Shown here: piece by piece, positions 1 to 5,118 of the stretch
Numbering within the stretch: the first letter of the stretch is position 1
How the letters are laid out: each line of letters begins with the position of its first letter
Source of the DNA: a virus
Lineage: Duplodnaviria > Heunggongvirae > Uroviricota > Caudoviricetes
Strand: one strand, 5' to 3'
DNA length: 5,118 bases
Virus record (IMG/VR): IMGVR_UViG_2548876946_000011
Location: 1 to 5,118 of that record
The notes under the pieces: generated by a model
Database searches by the model: none
What the model saw: only the letters and a program-made list of their open reading frames with translations
What the model was told of the DNA's origin: nothing
Made by a program: the position numbers and the translations under genes

Positions 1-128
1 AGAGCGTTTTTGTCGCTCGCAGCTGAATCCAGCCAGAATCCAAACTCAATATCCAGCGCATCAAAAAGCCAAAGCGGCGTTTGCCAGCAGTCCTTGTCGT
101 GTGCTGGCGTATTTGATTTGATAGTCAT
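1..128 (-). CDS. Partial CDS (first 42 codons; gene continues beyond the window start). nin-region protein whose N-terminus resembles phage Dam-type N6-adenine DNA methyltransferases
   Basis: Minus-strand ATG at 128..126 overlaps the ninB stop in an ATGA arrangement (plus 125-128 = tcat). Reverse-complement translation of 128..1 is MTIKSNTPAHDKDCWQTPLWLFDALDIEFGFWLDSAASDKNAL with no stop before the window edge. The D-x-W-x-TP...LF..L...FGF..D.AAS pattern is recalled from phage Dam-like methyltransferases; this is not a computed match. Not in the ORF track because it is truncated. Confidence 0.55.
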   Translation of the reverse strand, partial: MTIKSNTPAHDKDCWQTPLWLFDALDIEFGFWLDSAASDKNA

Positions 129-565
129 GCAGCCCGATCTCCCCATCGCGCTTTCCACTCCAGAGCCAGTCGCGCTTCGTCTGACCACTTAACGCCATGC
201 TCTGTACCAAATGCCTGTATAAGCTCTAATAGCTCCGCAAATTCGCTTACACGCATCCTGCTGGTTGACTGGCCTATTACCACAAAGCCATTCCCGGCAA
301 GGTTAGGAACAACGTCTTGCTGCTTTAATGCTGCGGTAAACACACACTTCCAGCTTTCTGCATCCAGCCAGCGACCATGCCATTCAACCTGACGAGAGAC
401 GTCACCTAAGCAGGCCCATAGCTTCCTGTTTTGGTCTAAGCTGCGGTTGCGTTCCTGAATGGTTACTACGATTGGTTTGGTTGGGTCTGGAAGGATTTGC
501 TGTACTGCGTGAATAGCGTTTTGCTGATGTGCTGGAGATCGAATTTCAAAGGTCAGTTTTTTCAT
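125..565 (-). CDS. ninB: NinB (Orf-family recombination mediator), 146 aa
   Basis: ORF-track protein from MKKLTFEIRSPAHQQNAIHAVQQILPDPTKPIVVTIQERNRSLDQNRKLWACLGD... matches lambda NinB as I remember it. Start chosen at ATG 565..563 (MKKLTF), preceded on the minus strand by GGGGGAGAGGGAAGTC as Shine-Dalgarno. The track's longer start at 583 (MGEREV) overlaps the upstream terminator T-tract and has no SD. Stop TGA at 127..125. Confidence 0.95.
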   Translation of the reverse strand: MKKLTFEIRSPAHQQNAIHAVQQILPDPTKPIVVTIQERNRSLDQNRKLWACLGDVSRQVEWHGRWLDAESWKCVFTAALKQQDVVPNLAGNGFVVIGQSTSRMRVSEFAELLELIQAFGTEHGVKWSDEARLALEWKARWGDRAA

Positions 566-638: not shown

Positions 639-2015
639 TCATACGTCAGCCCCTTGTGCATATCGTCTGCCACGTGCAGCGGGTGCATTTGATGCTGTGC
701 AAATCTGTCTGGCTTCATCCTGGTCACATGCAACAAAGTGTCCGTTACAGAACCGCTGGTAAACCGTACCAAGCGAGCCAAAACGGTTTTTCGTCACGAT
801 GATTTCAGCAAATGGCGCGGCGCTACTGTTCTCGTCATATACCGCTTCCCGATAGAGCATGATGATTGAGTCTGCGTCCTGCTCAATGCTTCCTGAATCA
901 CGCAAATCTGCGTTTGTCGGGCGTTTGTTTGGTCGCTTCTCAACATCGCGCGAAAGCTGACTCAGGGAGATAACTGGCGTTTTCAGGTCTTTCGCCATCG
1001 CCTTAAGGCTTCCTGAGATGTGAGCAATTGCGAGGTCGTTGCGGTCTGCTTTCGGCTTCTCAATCAGGCCAAGATAATCCGCCATGATGAGTGAGAGGTT
1101 TGGATTTTCCTGTTTGTGCCGCTCTGCGATTGAGCGAATTTCTTCTACCGATAACCGCGAGGCATCGACTACCCATACATCCAAATCTGCAAGCTGACTC
1201 ATGCCGTTAGCAACACGCGCCCAGCCTTCGTCATCCATCGATGCAGGATTTCGCAGTACGCTAACCGACATCCTCCCGGCGTTGGCAATGCTTCGCTCTG
1301 CAATCTGCAATGCGCTCATTTCCATCGAGAAAATCAACACTCCGCGCCGGACGTCAGAACCAGGAATAACGCGGCTTGCCACGCCTTCGGCAATCTTCAG
1401 CGCCAGTTCGGTTTTCCCCATACCAGGACGAGCGGCGATTATCACCAGATCTTCCGCGTTCATCCCTCCGGTGATGGCATCAAGTTCTTCGATTCCGGTC
1501 TTCAGGGTATCGGACTCTTCTCCGTTCCTCAGACGCCTGTCAAGCGTGTCAGTGTAGTCAGTAATGATTTCCCCTAACCGTACAGGTTTTACCTCGTCAC
1601 GGGGCTTTCTGATGGCTGAAAGACGCTTTACAAGTTCATCCATCGCCTGACTCGATGCGTCGATGGTTCCGCTCTGAATTGGTTCACGCATTTCATCCAT
1701 GATTTCCAGCACCAGACGGCGGTGATAGTTATCCGCGACCATTCCGGCATATCCCTTCAGGTTTGCGGCACTCGGGCAGTTTTTGCTGGTCATCAGGATT
1801 GACGTGAAATGCTCCTCTCCGCACGCCTCGGCAACCATCAGCGCGTCGATTAGGTTTCTGTTTCGCGCCTGCTTGCGGATAACCTCGAAGGCTTTCCGGT
1901 AGAGCGGAATTGAAAACGCTTCCGGCTCCAGCGTTGCCAGAACGTCGCTGGCGGTTGGTGTTAATCCACCAATCAGCAAGCCACCGATAACGCTCGCTTC
2001 GATATCCTGTCTCAT
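639..2015 (-). CDS. Replicative DNA helicase, DnaB family (phage P22 gene 12-like), 458 aa
   Basis: Full-length ORF with Walker A motif [16 protein letters not shown], a RecA-like core ([31 protein letters not shown]) and a DnaB-like N-terminal region. Minus-strand RBS AGGGGGA upstream of ATG 2015..2013. The start overlaps the stop of the upstream O-like gene (ATGA), suggesting translational coupling. Confidence 0.95.
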
Positions 2016-2842
2016 GCAATCCCCCTGTCTGCAAACTTCCCTTCCCGTACTCCAGTTAACGAATCTTCCCTCAGCAGGTAATCAAAATCAGCTGTCCAGC
2101 CCGTGTCGTTGTCTCCGAAGTAAAACGGCTTGGCCTGATGCACAAACGCCCTGACATACGCTCTGAAACCGTCCACGTTTGGCGTTTTCAGTTGCGGGAT
2201 GATTTTCTTCAGGCGGCGTTTGCGTTTCTCGTTGACCGCAACAGCGTGTGGCAGTCTGTCACCGACTTCGGTGTTGTAGGCGTTCAGGAAGGATTCATAG
2301 TCGATTCGTTCTGCCTTGCGACGTTCAGGTTTAACCTGCCCATCGCCGCCCCCGTTAGGGGGTAAGGGGGTATTTGTATTTATTGTCTTTTGTATATTGT
2401 CTTTTGTGTTTGACTGATTCGGTAAATTGCTTTTTACCGATTTGGTGAAGGTTTGTTTTACCGAATTGGTAAATGTTTTACCGAATCCGTTAACTTTCGT
2501 TTTCCACTCGGAAATGTTTGTATTCATACCAACTTGACGCCCCACCTGAATGAGAACTCCCATTCTGATAAGCTCGTTTTTGGCGGTAGAGCATTTGGTT
2601 GGTGCCATGCCAGTGAGTTCAGCGAACTGTTCGTTTCCGATCCAATCTATTTTTTTGTTGTAACCGTATGTCTTGCGCCACACAGCCATAACAATCAGTA
2701 ACTGATGTAGAGTAAGTCCAGAAAGCATGGCGGCTTCTAACAGTGTGTTTGCAGTCCGAGTGTAGCCATCTTCGAGTTCTGCCACGCGATGCTCCACGAC
2801 CTCCAGTTGAGGCCTGTAATCAGCTAACTTAACGACGCCCAT
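2012..2842 (-). CDS. O: Replication initiation protein, lambda O / P22 gene 18-like, 276 aa
   Basis: N-terminal region ...[59 protein letters not shown]...[11 protein letters not shown]...NISEW resembles the lambda O N-terminal iteron-binding domain (remembered LDDGYARLSNMLLEAY...ILRKTYGWNK...ISEW). The gene contains the iteron/AT-rich origin. Strong RBS AGGAGTG upstream of ATG 2842..2840. A Pro/Gly linker ([10 protein letters not shown]) precedes the C-terminal domain, which is expected to recruit the helicase. Confidence 0.9.
2371..2493. other. Candidate phage origin of replication (ori-lambda-like): four iterons plus an adjacent ~40-bp AT-rich region inside the O-like gene
   Basis: Iterons at 2409..2493 are followed, in the direction of O transcription, by the AT-rich segment 2371..2408 (tatttgtatttattgtcttttgtatattgtcttttgtg). 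This is the same order and scale as the lambda origin inside O. Assignment is by architecture only. Confidence 0.75.
2409..2493. repeat. Iteron array, 4 copies of an ~18-bp partially palindromic repeat (consensus about TTTTACCGAATTGGTAAA)
   Basis: Copies at 2409..2426 (tttgactgattcggtaaa), 2432..2449 (ttttaccgatttggtgaa), 2456..2473 (ttttaccgaattggtaaa) and 2476..2493 (ttttaccgaatccgttaa), spaced 23, 24 and 20 bp. Each has TTACC/GGTAA dyad arms. They encode a repeated peptide in the O-like protein ([16 protein letters not shown]). Confidence 0.75.
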
Positions 2843-2990
2843 GTTTCACTCCTGCTTTGGCTAGTCTGTAAACACCAACAAGGCGCTCTGCGAACGCCCT
2901 GTTATTTGCTGCGGCTACCACTAATCCCTCAGGTGAATCAGGGTGTCGAATCTCTTCTTTTTCCTGGTATTTCTTACGACGTTTTGTCAT
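2829..2990 (-). CDS. Hypothetical small basic protein, 53 aa, between cII and the O-like gene
   Basis: Not in the ORF track (below its length cutoff). Minus-strand ATG at 2990..2988 is preceded by AGGAGT with 5-nt spacing. My translation is [53 protein letters not shown], with stop TAA at 2831..2829 overlapping the first codons of the O-like gene. No homology is claimed. Confidence 0.4.
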   Translation of the reverse strand: MTKRRKKYQEKEEIRHPDSPEGLVVAAANNRAFAERLVGVYRLAKAGVKHGRR

Positions 2991-2999
2991 AATTACTCC

Positions 3000-3079
3000 T
3001 GTGGATTGATCCAGTAATTCCCTCAGAATTGCATATCAATTTGCTTAAAATCCTCGGTGGCGGCCGGGGATTTTTTCTT
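3000..3079 (+). ncRNA. Candidate OOP-like antisense RNA (about 80 nt), antisense to the 3' end of cII
   Basis: Plus-strand extended -10 motif TGtCATAAT (2985..2993) gives a predicted start near 3000. A strong intrinsic terminator at 3046..3079 lies inside the cII 3' coding region on the opposite strand. Position and size mirror lambda OOP RNA. Inference only. Confidence 0.35.
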
Positions 3080-3319
3080 TGTGATTTCATCAAGCGCATA
3101 CTTAAAAGCCCTGCTAATCGGACTGATGTCTGATGCCATTCCGAAAGCACACAAGACCGAAGCAATAAATCTCCAGTCCGTTCTGCTTATCTTCGATTCA
3201 TGACAGCCAATCATCTTTGCCAGACCGCGCTGGGTAAGCGTTGACAGGTTGATGAGTAAATCTGTTTCTGCGCGATCAATTTCTCGCTGTGTTGGCTTGC
3301 TGTAACTTGCTTGTGTCAT
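3023..3319 (-). CDS. cII: CII-type transcriptional activator (lysogeny establishment), 98 aa
   Basis: ORF-track protein ends ...DEITKKKSPAATEDFKQIDMQF, resembling the lambda CII C-terminus (...NKKRPAATERSEQIQMEF as recalled), with a central HTH-like segment (LAKMIGCHESKISR). It sits between cro and O as in lambdoid phages. A TTGC-N6-TTGC motif lies antisense within its 5' end. Confidence 0.88.
   Translation of the reverse strand: MTQASYSKPTQREIDRAETDLLINLSTLTQRGLAKMIGCHESKISRTDWRFIASVLCAFGMASDISPISRAFKYALDEITKKKSPAATEDFKQIDMQF
3046..3079 (+). terminator. Rho-independent terminator on the plus strand inside the cII 3' end (candidate OOP terminator)
   Basis: Stem 3049..3056 (atcctcgg) pairs with 3063..3070 (ccggggat): 8 bp including one G-U. 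Loop is tggcgg, followed by TTTTTTCTTT (3070..3079). A-T extensions on both flanks (3046..3048 / 3071..3073) could allow some bidirectional function. Confidence 0.65.
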
Positions 3320-3329
3320 TTCTTAATAT
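3297..3329 (+). promoter_or_regulatory. Candidate pRE-like CII-activated promoter (TTGC-N6-TTGC plus -10)
   Basis: TTGC (3297..3300), spacer tgtaac, TTGC (3307..3310), then 13 nt and TAATAT (3324..3329). It lies antisense in the first codons of cII and points toward cro (antisense) and cI. The geometry matches lambda pRE as I recall it. Confidence 0.6.
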
Positions 3330-3404
3330 TTCCAATAGTGAATAGTTAGTTGAAAGGTATGCGTGGAAACGCATATGGCCTTAGTTGGTCAGATATATTG
3401 GGAC

Positions 3405-3450
3405 TCGCTTTTCAGCGACGTAGGACGAATGTCCGTTGTTACAAAGAGCG
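3405..3450 (-). promoter_or_regulatory. Candidate nutR (boxA plus boxB-like hairpin) just downstream of cro
   Basis: Minus-strand boxA CGCTCTTT (plus 3450..3443) begins 12 nt after the cro stop. Then gtaacaac, a small hairpin GGACattcGTCC, tacg, and the boxB-like hairpin TCGCtgaaaaGCGA (plus 3418..3405). The same boxA-aacaac-hairpin-tacg-boxB layout recurs at the candidate nutL. Confidence 0.55.
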
Positions 3451-3460
3451 GACCCGCTTA

Positions 3461-3676
3461 TTAAGCAGCTTTGTGTTCCGGCGGGAACACGTCATCAAGA
3501 CTGACTTTTGCGCCTAACTTGTTTAGGCACTCAACAAGAGCACGGCATGTTTTAAGGTCTGGGAAGCGACGACCAGATTCCCAATGTCCGATAGCTCCCT
3601 GTGTGCATCCAACTGCCTTAGCAAGTGTTGTTTGAGAGATATTCAGTGACTCTCGATATTTTCGTAGGTTGCTCAT
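3461..3676 (-). CDS. cro: Cro-type HTH repressor, 71 aa
   Basis: Small HTH protein MSNLRKYRESLNISQTTLAKAVGCTQGAIGHWESGRRFPDLKTCRALVECLNKLG... divergent from cI, with a recognition helix very similar to that of the cI here (TQGAIGHW vs TQGGIGHW). Start at ATG 3676..3674 has an upstream GGAGGG. The track's longer start at 3703 lacks an SD and lies upstream of the predicted pR start. Confidence 0.85.
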   Translation of the reverse strand: MSNLRKYRESLNISQTTLAKAVGCTQGAIGHWESGRRFPDLKTCRALVECLNKLGAKVSLDDVFPPEHKAA

Positions 3677-3702
3677 ATGCCCTCCATAGTAACCATAACA
3701 CA

Positions 3703-3731
3703 ATAATACGATATGTACTTTTAGAATGCAA
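3703..3731 (-). promoter_or_regulatory. Candidate pR promoter driving cro
   Basis: Minus strand: -35 TTGCAT (plus 3731..3726), 17-nt spacer, -10 TATTAT (plus 3708..3703). The spacer (tctaaaagtacatatcg) is nearly identical to the pL spacer (cagtaaagtacacatcg). Confidence 0.65.
3705..3719. promoter_or_regulatory. Candidate operator (OR1-like) overlapping the pR spacer and -10
   Basis: Minus-strand sequence AGTACatatcGTATT, half-site pattern AGTAC-N5-GTAyT. Same motif and same position relative to the promoter as the pL site at 4586..4600. Confidence 0.5.
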
Positions 3732-3764
3732 ACAAAAAATACATCTTGTGCATGGATGATTTTA

Positions 3765-3779
3765 GTACAGAGCGTAATA
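3765..3779. promoter_or_regulatory. Candidate operator (OR3-like) next to the cI start, overlapping a possible pRM -10
   Basis: Plus strand AGTACagagcGTAAT fits AGTAC-N5-GTAnT. A weaker possible middle site AATACatcttGTGCA lies at 3738..3752. A possible pRM -10 TAATAA at 3775..3780 would put the start near ATG 3788. Confidence 0.4.
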
Positions 3780-3787
3780 ATAAGGGT

Positions 3788-4447
3788 ATGAAAATGAAAT
3801 GGTATGAACTGGCTAGATCCAGAATGAAAGAGCTAGGCATAACTCAAGAGAAGTTAGCTGAAGAGCTTGGTATGACGCAGGGTGGAATTGGTCACTGGTT
3901 GCGCGGATCTCGTCATCCATCTCTTGACGAGATTGGTGTGGTGTTTAAATACCTTGGTATTGATAACGTCTCATTCAACCACGACGGTACATTTTCACCT
4001 GTTGGCGAATACTCATCTGCCCCCGTTAAAAAACAATATGAGTACCCTGTTTTTTCTCATGTTCAGGCCGGGATGTTCTCGCCTGAGCTTAGAACCTTTA
4101 CCAAAGGTGATGCGGAGAGATGGGTCAGCACAACCAAAAAAGCCAGTGATTGTGCGTTTTGGCTTGAAGTTGAAGGTAATTCCATGACCGCGCCAACAGG
4201 ATCCAAGCCAAGCTTTCCTGACGGGATGTTAATTCTCGTTGACCCTGAGCAGGCTGTTGAGCCAGGTGATTTCTGCATAGCCAGACTTGGTGGTGACGAG
4301 TTTACCTTCAAGAAACTGATCAGGGATAGCGGTCAGGTGTTCCTACAACCACTAAATCCGCAATATCCAATGATTCCATGCAATGATAGCTGTTCCGTAG
4401 TAGGGAAAGTTATCGCCAGCCAGTGGCCTGAAGAGACATTTAGTTAA
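3788..4447 (+). CDS. cI: CI-type prophage repressor (HTH N-domain plus LexA/S24-like autocleavage C-domain)
   Basis: C-terminal portion [52 protein letters not shown]...[15 protein letters not shown] is almost identical to the lambda cI C-terminal domain as I remember it, including the Ser (GNSMTAP) and Lys (FKKLI) catalytic context. The N-terminal HTH ([23 protein letters not shown]) is unlike lambda. Start is uncertain: the longest ORF begins at 3746, but 3788 (MKMKW) or 3794 keeps the candidate operators in the intergenic region. AAGGG lies 7 nt before the 3794 ATG. Confidence 0.93.
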
Positions 4448-4477: not shown

Positions 4478-4507
4478 AACCCGACCTTAGCGTCGGGTTT
4501 TCTTTTT
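4478..4507 (+). terminator. Rho-independent terminator immediately downstream of cI
   Basis: Stem aacccgac (4478..4485) pairs with gtcgggtt (4492..4499), 6-nt loop cttagc, T-tract ttttcttttt (4498..4507). It begins 31 nt after the cI stop. Confidence 0.8.
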
Positions 4508-4602: not shown

Positions 4603-4647
4603 TTAGCCATCAGCAGGAAGCTGGAAGCCAAACGGAACAGACTGGCA

Positions 4648-4694
4648 TGCTCTTTAAACAACGTCGAGCACTCGACTACGTGGCTGAAAAGCCA
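4648..4694 (+). promoter_or_regulatory. Candidate nutL (boxA plus boxB-like hairpin) in the pL leader
   Basis: boxA-like TGCTCTTTAA (4648..4657), then acaac, hairpin GTCGAgcacTCGAC (4663..4676), tacg, and boxB-like TGGCtgaaaaGCCA (4681..4694). Architecture parallels the candidate nutR. Confidence 0.55.
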
Positions 4695-4792: not shown

Positions 4793-5065
4793 ATGTCCAG
4801 AAAAACAGAATTTAAAGGCACCTCAGCTTCTCGTCGTAGAGCTCGTCGCGCAAACCTGCAAAGTCAGGAGGCGATTAGCTCCGACAAGCTACACAGACCA
4901 ACCCCCTCACGAGTGGTCTTGCAATGTAAGCGCAAACCAGCAATGAGAGCAGAAGTAATAACACTGACAACGCTGACCAGAAAATATGAAGGCTCAACTT
5001 GTCTTCCAAACGTAGCTCTTTACGCGGCAGGCTACCGGAAATCCAAACAACTGACAGCAAGATGA
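4793..5065 (+). CDS. N: N-type transcription antitermination protein, 90 aa
   Basis: N-terminal arginine-rich motif MSRKTEFKGTSASRRRARRANLQSQEA is typical of lambdoid N proteins (remembered lambda MDAQTRRRERRAEKQAQW). The gene lies downstream of the pL-like promoter and nutL-like site. Start at ATG 4793 has SD GGGAGGA 5 nt upstream. The track's upstream start at 4709 has no SD. Confidence 0.8.
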   Translation: MSRKTEFKGTSASRRRARRANLQSQEAISSDKLHRPTPSRVVLQCKRKPAMRAEVITLTTLTRKYEGSTCLPNVALYAAGYRKSKQLTAR

Positions 5066-5118
5066 CTTGTGTTGGTCGCCAGAAAATGAAATTAGGCAGC
5101 AAACCACTTATTTGAGGT

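Follow-up and report, generated by a model that had tools for sequence, protein, structure and literature searches.

A predicted CII-activated promoter of the pRE type overlapping the start of cII in a lambdoid prophage of E. coli

The direct repeat TTGCN6TTGC is the recognition site of the lambda CII protein at three promoters, PRE, PI and PaQ (PMC4651098), and is read by two subunits of the CII tetramer (PMC9986795). Phage phi24B has a CII repeat at the same locations with one base changed (PMC4651098), and the same logic was noted in epsilon34 and P22 (PMC2629481). In the lambda sequence (NC_001416), the three sites have a common geometry, TTGC-N6-TTGC-N13, followed by the hexamer AAGTAT at pRE, TGTACT at pI and TAGTAT at paQ, while the two other TTGC-N6-TTGC matches in that genome have no -10-like hexamer at 13 nt. 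The promoter corresponding to pRE in phage HK022 is called pE, and its -10, its -35 and the flanking 4-bp sites were annotated (X16093; Oberto, Weisberg and Gottesman 1989) at bases homologous to those described below. Similarly, a 'CII protein binding site' and a promoter are annotated at exactly equivalent coordinates in VT2-Sakai (AP000422), with 95% DNA identity. The kind of element and the homologous site are thus already known and belong to textbook lambdoid biology. A literature search found no experiment on CII binding or pE activity for the HK97/HK022-type protein. A study of an HK022/lambda hybrid showed that a phage with HK022 cII in place of lambda cII is viable and reported nothing on lysogeny (PMC6256539), and a paper on Stx-phage CII and type III secretion contained no binding-site data (PMC3355084).

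The site analyzed here occupies positions 3297 to 3329 of a 5,118-nucleotide stretch of DNA, referred to throughout as the window. Very probably it serves an HK97/HK022-type cII module of a lambdoid prophage from E. coli as its pRE, which in HK022 is named pE. That CII would bind it and be required for its activity, where transcription would start and how cI and cro would be affected are all ascribed to it by analogy with lambda.

Organization of the locus and its CII activator

The window holds, in reverse orientation, the genes for immunity and replication of a lambdoid prophage (Table 1). A prophage in the E. coli chromosome NZ_CP148579 matched it with 100% identity across 92% of the window length, and the best DNA matches of the cII-cro-cI segment, positions 2800-3800, were the Stx-type phages 2851, Nil2 and 1717 at approximately 96%. 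The start codon of cI is possibly the ATG at 3794 instead of 3788.

Table 1. Promoter elements, genes and predicted transcript ends in the window.
Feature	Position	Strand	Evidence
Promoter-distal CII recognition tetranucleotide TTGC	3297-3300	+	sequence; homologue conservation
N6 TGTAAC, weak -35 region	3301-3306	+	sequence; HK022 'pE -35 region' annotation
Promoter-proximal CII recognition tetranucleotide TTGC	3307-3310	+	sequence; homologue conservation
13-nt spacer TTGTGTCATTTCT	3311-3323	+	sequence
-10 hexamer TAATAT	3324-3329	+	sequence; HK022 'pE -10' annotation
Predicted start of leftward cI-directed establishment transcript	3335-3337	+	6-8 nt past the -10, lambda analogy
Terminator-like hairpin and T-run just past cI	4478-4499	+	terminator scan
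ninB	125-565	-	ORF map/Pfam
P gene, DnaB-like	639-2015	-	ORF map/Pfam
O-type replication gene	2012-2842	-	ORF map/Pfam
cII, activator gene with the site in its first codons	3023-3319	-	Pfam Phage_CII
cro	3461-3676	-	HTH_3, 1.4e-12; labelled cro in relatives
cI repressor, HTH and S24 peptidase	3788-4447	+	Peptidase_S24, 8.9e-29; HTH_3, 8.3e-11
N gene, 933W-type	4793-5065	+	Pfam N_peptide, 1e-31

Several smaller features accompany these genes. A 53-codon open reading frame on the minus strand (2829-2990) lies between cII and O, overlaps the start of O and has counterparts in HK97 gp53 and HK022 orf48; a Pfam search assigned it to no family. A nutR-like boxA, CGCTCTTTG, and boxB, TCGCTGAAAAGCGA, were read from the minus strand between 3350 and 3450 with the help of a relative's annotation, and a hairpin at 3359-3374 on the same strand corresponds to the tR1 annotation of VT2-Sakai. 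On the plus strand, a nutL-like boxA, GCTCTTTAAACAA, and boxB, GGCTGAAAAGCC (4682-4693), were located upstream of N at 4647-4693. A plus-strand frame at 5062-5115 overlaps the last codons of N, passes its stop and encodes MTCVGRQKMKLGSKPLI*, which shares 65% identity with the C-terminal end of lambda N; by this likeness the frame is identified as what is left of a lambda-type N at a mosaic junction. The prophage of NZ_CP148579 (designated L107) has approximately 830 extra bp between ninB and the helicase gene (L107 20571-21472; window position about 565-640). They hold three small genes, one of them a Lar-family restriction-alleviation gene, that are absent from the window.

The cII product matched the Pfam family Phage_CII (PF05269) with E=4.1e-33 over profile positions 1-90 of 91, a full-length match that took in both the helix-turn-helix and the conserved tail at the C-terminus. 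It also matched the lambda CII structures 1XWR, 1ZPQ and 8IGR at E=1e-4. The MAFFT alignment with lambda CII, approximately 37% identical, showed ISR..DW in the helix-turn-helix region and KK-PAATE...M-F at the C-terminus, while the amino acid identity was 100% to HK97 CII and 99% to HK022 CII. Homology therefore identifies the gene at 3023-3319 as one encoding a true CII-family activator.

The two tetranucleotides, one helical turn apart, cover codons 4-8 of cII in the antisense direction, and the promoter faces through cro to cI. On the cII strand each reads GCAA. The distal one is formed by positions 2-3 of codon 7 and positions 1-2 of codon 8, and the proximal one by the Ala4 codon GCA and the first base of codon 5. 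The sequence between the repeats, TGTAAC, matches the -35 consensus TTGACA at 2/6 positions and is 17 bp from the -10. The latter matches TATAAT at 4/6 positions, with the A at position 2 and the T at position 6. The cII ATG is read as its complement CAT within the spacer, at 3317-3319. The initial annotation, made from the letters of the window, had described a TTGC-N6-TTGC motif with a -10-like TAATAT 13 nt further on, placed on the plus strand antisense to cII and pointing toward cI, at the distance of lambda pRE. The motif was confirmed by reading the sequence at 3297-3329, its strand and direction by the open reading frame map and the Pfam assignments, and the spacing by the lambda sequence itself (NC_001416).

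A sigma-70 consensus scan of the window did not call a promoter at 3297-3329, which we attribute to the weak -35 expected of an activator-dependent promoter. No Rfam family matched any part of the window at E<=1.

The site of the window resembles lambda pRE in having a poor -35 between the repeats, in the complement of the cII ATG 6 nt past the proximal repeat and in its direction, antisense to cII and cro and toward cI, with an activator from the same Pfam family. The N6 and the -10 differ, GTTTGT and AAGTAT in lambda compared to TGTAAC and TAATAT in the window, and lambda pRE has been proven experimentally, whereas the window site is known from its sequence. HK022, HK97 and the window agree in the location over codons 4-8, in the N6 (TGTAAC) and in a spacing of 13 nt. 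HK022, however, has TTGT as proximal repeat, Thr4 in CII and TACTAT as -10, while HK97 has the TTGC of the window combined with TAATTT. The Stx phages have a proximal TTGT and a -10 of TAAGAT.

The predicted transcript and other CII-type sites

By analogy with lambda, CII would be supplied after infection by the pR transcript, which runs rightward (on the minus strand in the window). A CII tetramer would set two of its subunits on the direct repeats at 3297-3300 and 3307-3310, flanking the poor -35 TGTAAC, and the bound protein would bring RNA polymerase with sigma-70 to the -10 TAATAT (3324-3329) or stabilise it there. The transcript would begin on the plus strand at approximately 3335-3337, cross the spacer between cro and cII and then cro itself in antisense, and continue into cI (3788-4447). 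The expected outcome would be a burst of repressor and dampened expression of Cro and CII; the lambda paradigm suggests that the effect on cro (3461-3676) would be an antisense effect of the pRE transcript. In lambda the pRE -10 ends at 38350 (NC_001416) and transcription starts at 38343. The hairpin at 4478-4499 is the likely end of the cI transcript.

It could be argued that this is a real CII-activated promoter whose main role is the antisense silencing of cro and cII, possibly with an influence on replication control, instead of the supply of cI mRNA. Before it reaches cI, the transcript has to traverse cro in antisense as well as the operators, approximately 450 nt in all, and paQ provides the lambda paradigm of a CII promoter that can act purely via antisense RNA. 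Nevertheless, a mainly silencing role is improbable in view of three observations, 1) no terminator-like site was found on the plus strand between the promoter and cI (3330-3788), 2) the layout is collinear with that of lambda, where pRE serves both roles, and 3) the Shine-Dalgarno-like AAGGG of cI (3782-3786) is carried only by transcripts that start upstream, such as that of pRE. A pRE whose transcript would serve cI expression is the preferred reading.

The outputs of the other two lambda promoters, paQ and pI, are the anti-Q RNA and the int mRNA, and neither promoter lies within the window. Since the window is too short to include such sites, the regulon scan was carried out on the near-identical 46-kb prophage of NZ_CP148579. 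Both strands of this prophage contained only two perfect TTGC-N6-TTGC sites, one of which is the pRE site of the window. The second, TTGC-GAGGTC-TTGC (TTGCGAGGTCTTGC)-N13-TAAGAT, is on the plus strand at L107 14449-14481, antisense within the Q gene (14286-14774, minus strand). The Q protein of this prophage showed no BLASTP similarity to lambda Q. The paQ-like site was kept in 80/80 close relatives of that Q, with variation only in the spacer.

No pI-like site with 0 or 1 mismatch was found near the integrase (torI-like gene and integrase, L107 32400-34217). Expression of int in this prophage, which has a P4-type integrase, may not be controlled by CII, and of the three promoters of the lambda regulon only pRE and paQ have a counterpart among the sites found in it. 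A scan of the whole prophage for further sites of the pI and paQ kind had been proposed in the initial annotation. HK97, which has an identical CII, has sites at the pRE, pI and paQ positions, and its pI is identical to that of lambda.

Conservation of the site among cII homologues

The conservation of the site was assessed in 320 loci, which were reduced to 125 distinct 130-nt segments from the 5' end of cII, with 51-100% identity to the window CII, plus the lambda type. Homologous sequences are often closely related, so that the counts represent non-independent events. The sources were four scans in which viral contigs were queried with CII, one scan of species-representative genomes and the named phages lambda, HK97, HK022, phage 21, phi24B, VT2-Sakai, Stx2 II, 75/02 Stx, Hafnia phage Meifeng and Erwinia phiEt88. 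The species-representative genomes, scanned with a CII alignment, yielded only 16 loci, and the diversity came from the viral contigs and the named phages.

TTGC-N6-TTG[C/T] was present over the 5' end of cII in all 125 distinct segments. The distal TTGC was invariant (125/125), while the proximal repeat was TTGC in 110 and TTGT in 15. The hexamer was exactly 13 nt past the proximal repeat in every segment, and 20 of the 21 hexamer variants had A at position 2 and T at position 6, although the -10 overlaps the ribosome-binding region of cII on the opposite strand and translation signals could explain part of this conservation. Among 34 representatives less than 90% identical, the information content peaked at both tetranucleotides and at positions 2 and 6 of the -10; these two positions were near-invariant and the remaining four columns of the hexamer varied. 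The pRE-type reading of the initial annotation is supported by this 125/125 conservation together with the neighbouring CII-family gene and the annotated homologous sites in HK022 and VT2-Sakai.

The same pattern could conceivably reflect the constraints of cII itself, its N-terminal residues, the structure of its mRNA or the initiation of its translation, with neither a promoter nor a protein-binding site on the opposite strand. The motif does lie within codons 4-8, the -10 falls between the Shine-Dalgarno sequence and the ATG of cII, and at the amino acid level Ala4 and Lys8 hardly vary. The TTCC past the -10, GGAA on the cII strand, is conserved as well. However, several findings make this explanation slightly less probable still than a mainly silencing role, 1) CII residues 2, 3, 5 and 6 are free to vary, always with codons compatible with GCAA...GCAA, while the tetranucleotides are not, 2) the Ala4 codon was GCA in 145/145 distinct coding sequences, a constraint at the nucleotide level and not at the protein level, 3) the composite of repeats and -10 is also antisense in the unrelated gene Q of the near-identical prophage, HK97 and lambda and 4) only positions 2 and 6 of the -10 are fixed, which is a sigma-70 signature. 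For comparison, the other conserved multi-codon columns used 2-6 synonymous codons each; Ala34, for example, was encoded by GCA in 95 sequences, GCG in 57, GCT in 12 and GCC in 1.

A further argument came from 13 distinct sequences in which cII is one codon longer at its N-terminus. Here the distance of the -10 from the ATG changed and its 13-nt distance from the repeat did not, so that what is conserved is the geometry of a promoter and not that of the start of cII translation. A purely coding or translational constraint was rejected on the basis of the invariant GCA at Ala4, the -10 that tracks the repeats and the recurrence of the composite in Q. Together these data indicate that the site is conserved among the homologues beyond the coding requirement, as would be the case for a CII-dependent promoter.

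The repeat by itself was not distinctive. One perfect TTGCN6TTGC occurred in the window compared to 0.45 expected, and at least one was present in 70 of 200 shuffles (35%), so that the bare TTGC-N6-TTGC is not significant in a 5-kb window. Versions with one mismatch were no more frequent than by chance. In contrast, the composite TTGC-N6-TTGC-N14-A-N3-T had one match compared to 0.01 expected, and 3/200 shuffles reached one. The motif is beyond chance because it was conserved in every homologue examined, down to the lambda type and at the exact lambda-equivalent codons; a functionless chance match, effectively refuted by these data, has a negligible probability.

Variation in the proximal repeat and the establishment circuit

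The base that distinguishes TTGT from TTGC in the proximal repeat of HK022 and the Stx phages also converts Ala4 (GCA) of CII to Thr4 (ACA). As read from the sequences, one nucleotide couples the putative binding site to the sequence of its own activator. It is possible, but rather doubtful, that the TTGC/TTGT polymorphism acts as a natural tuning knob for the frequency of lysogenisation. If it did, the window, which would carry the strong allele with its perfect repeats and a -10 that agrees with the consensus at 4/6 positions, might have a higher or partly CII-independent pRE activity compared to the Stx phages.

A candidate homologue of the oop RNA was observed antisense to the 3' end of cII, on the plus strand at 2985-3080. 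The region aligned with the oop regions of lambda and phage 21, including the pO -10 CATAAT at approximately 2988-2993. The predicted RNA starts at about 3001 and ends in a terminator hairpin at 3047-3074 that is followed by a T-run; its fold had an energy of -30.4 kcal/mol (z = -3.9). There was no Rfam hit in this region.

The cI, cro and operators of the window are of the 2851/Nil2/1717 type, different from the immunity genes of HK022 and HK97, while its cII is of the HK97/HK022 type. The suggestion in the initial annotation that the establishment circuit is conserved despite a different repressor specificity was therefore upheld, and immunity genes that differ in type from the cII module are the expected lambdoid mosaic pattern. 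With cII, pRE, cI and an oop-like antisense RNA nearby, the prophage appears to have an intact lambda-style circuit for the establishment of lysogeny. The importance of the site beyond its correct annotation is small. The comparative data do provide a clear example of a putative binding site that lies within the gene for the protein that would use it. The comparison also provides an annotation rule for CII-dependent promoters in prophages, TTGC-N6-TTG[C/T]-N13-nAnnnT, which, applied to lambda, picked out the three known CII promoters and excluded the two remaining TTGC-N6-TTGC matches.
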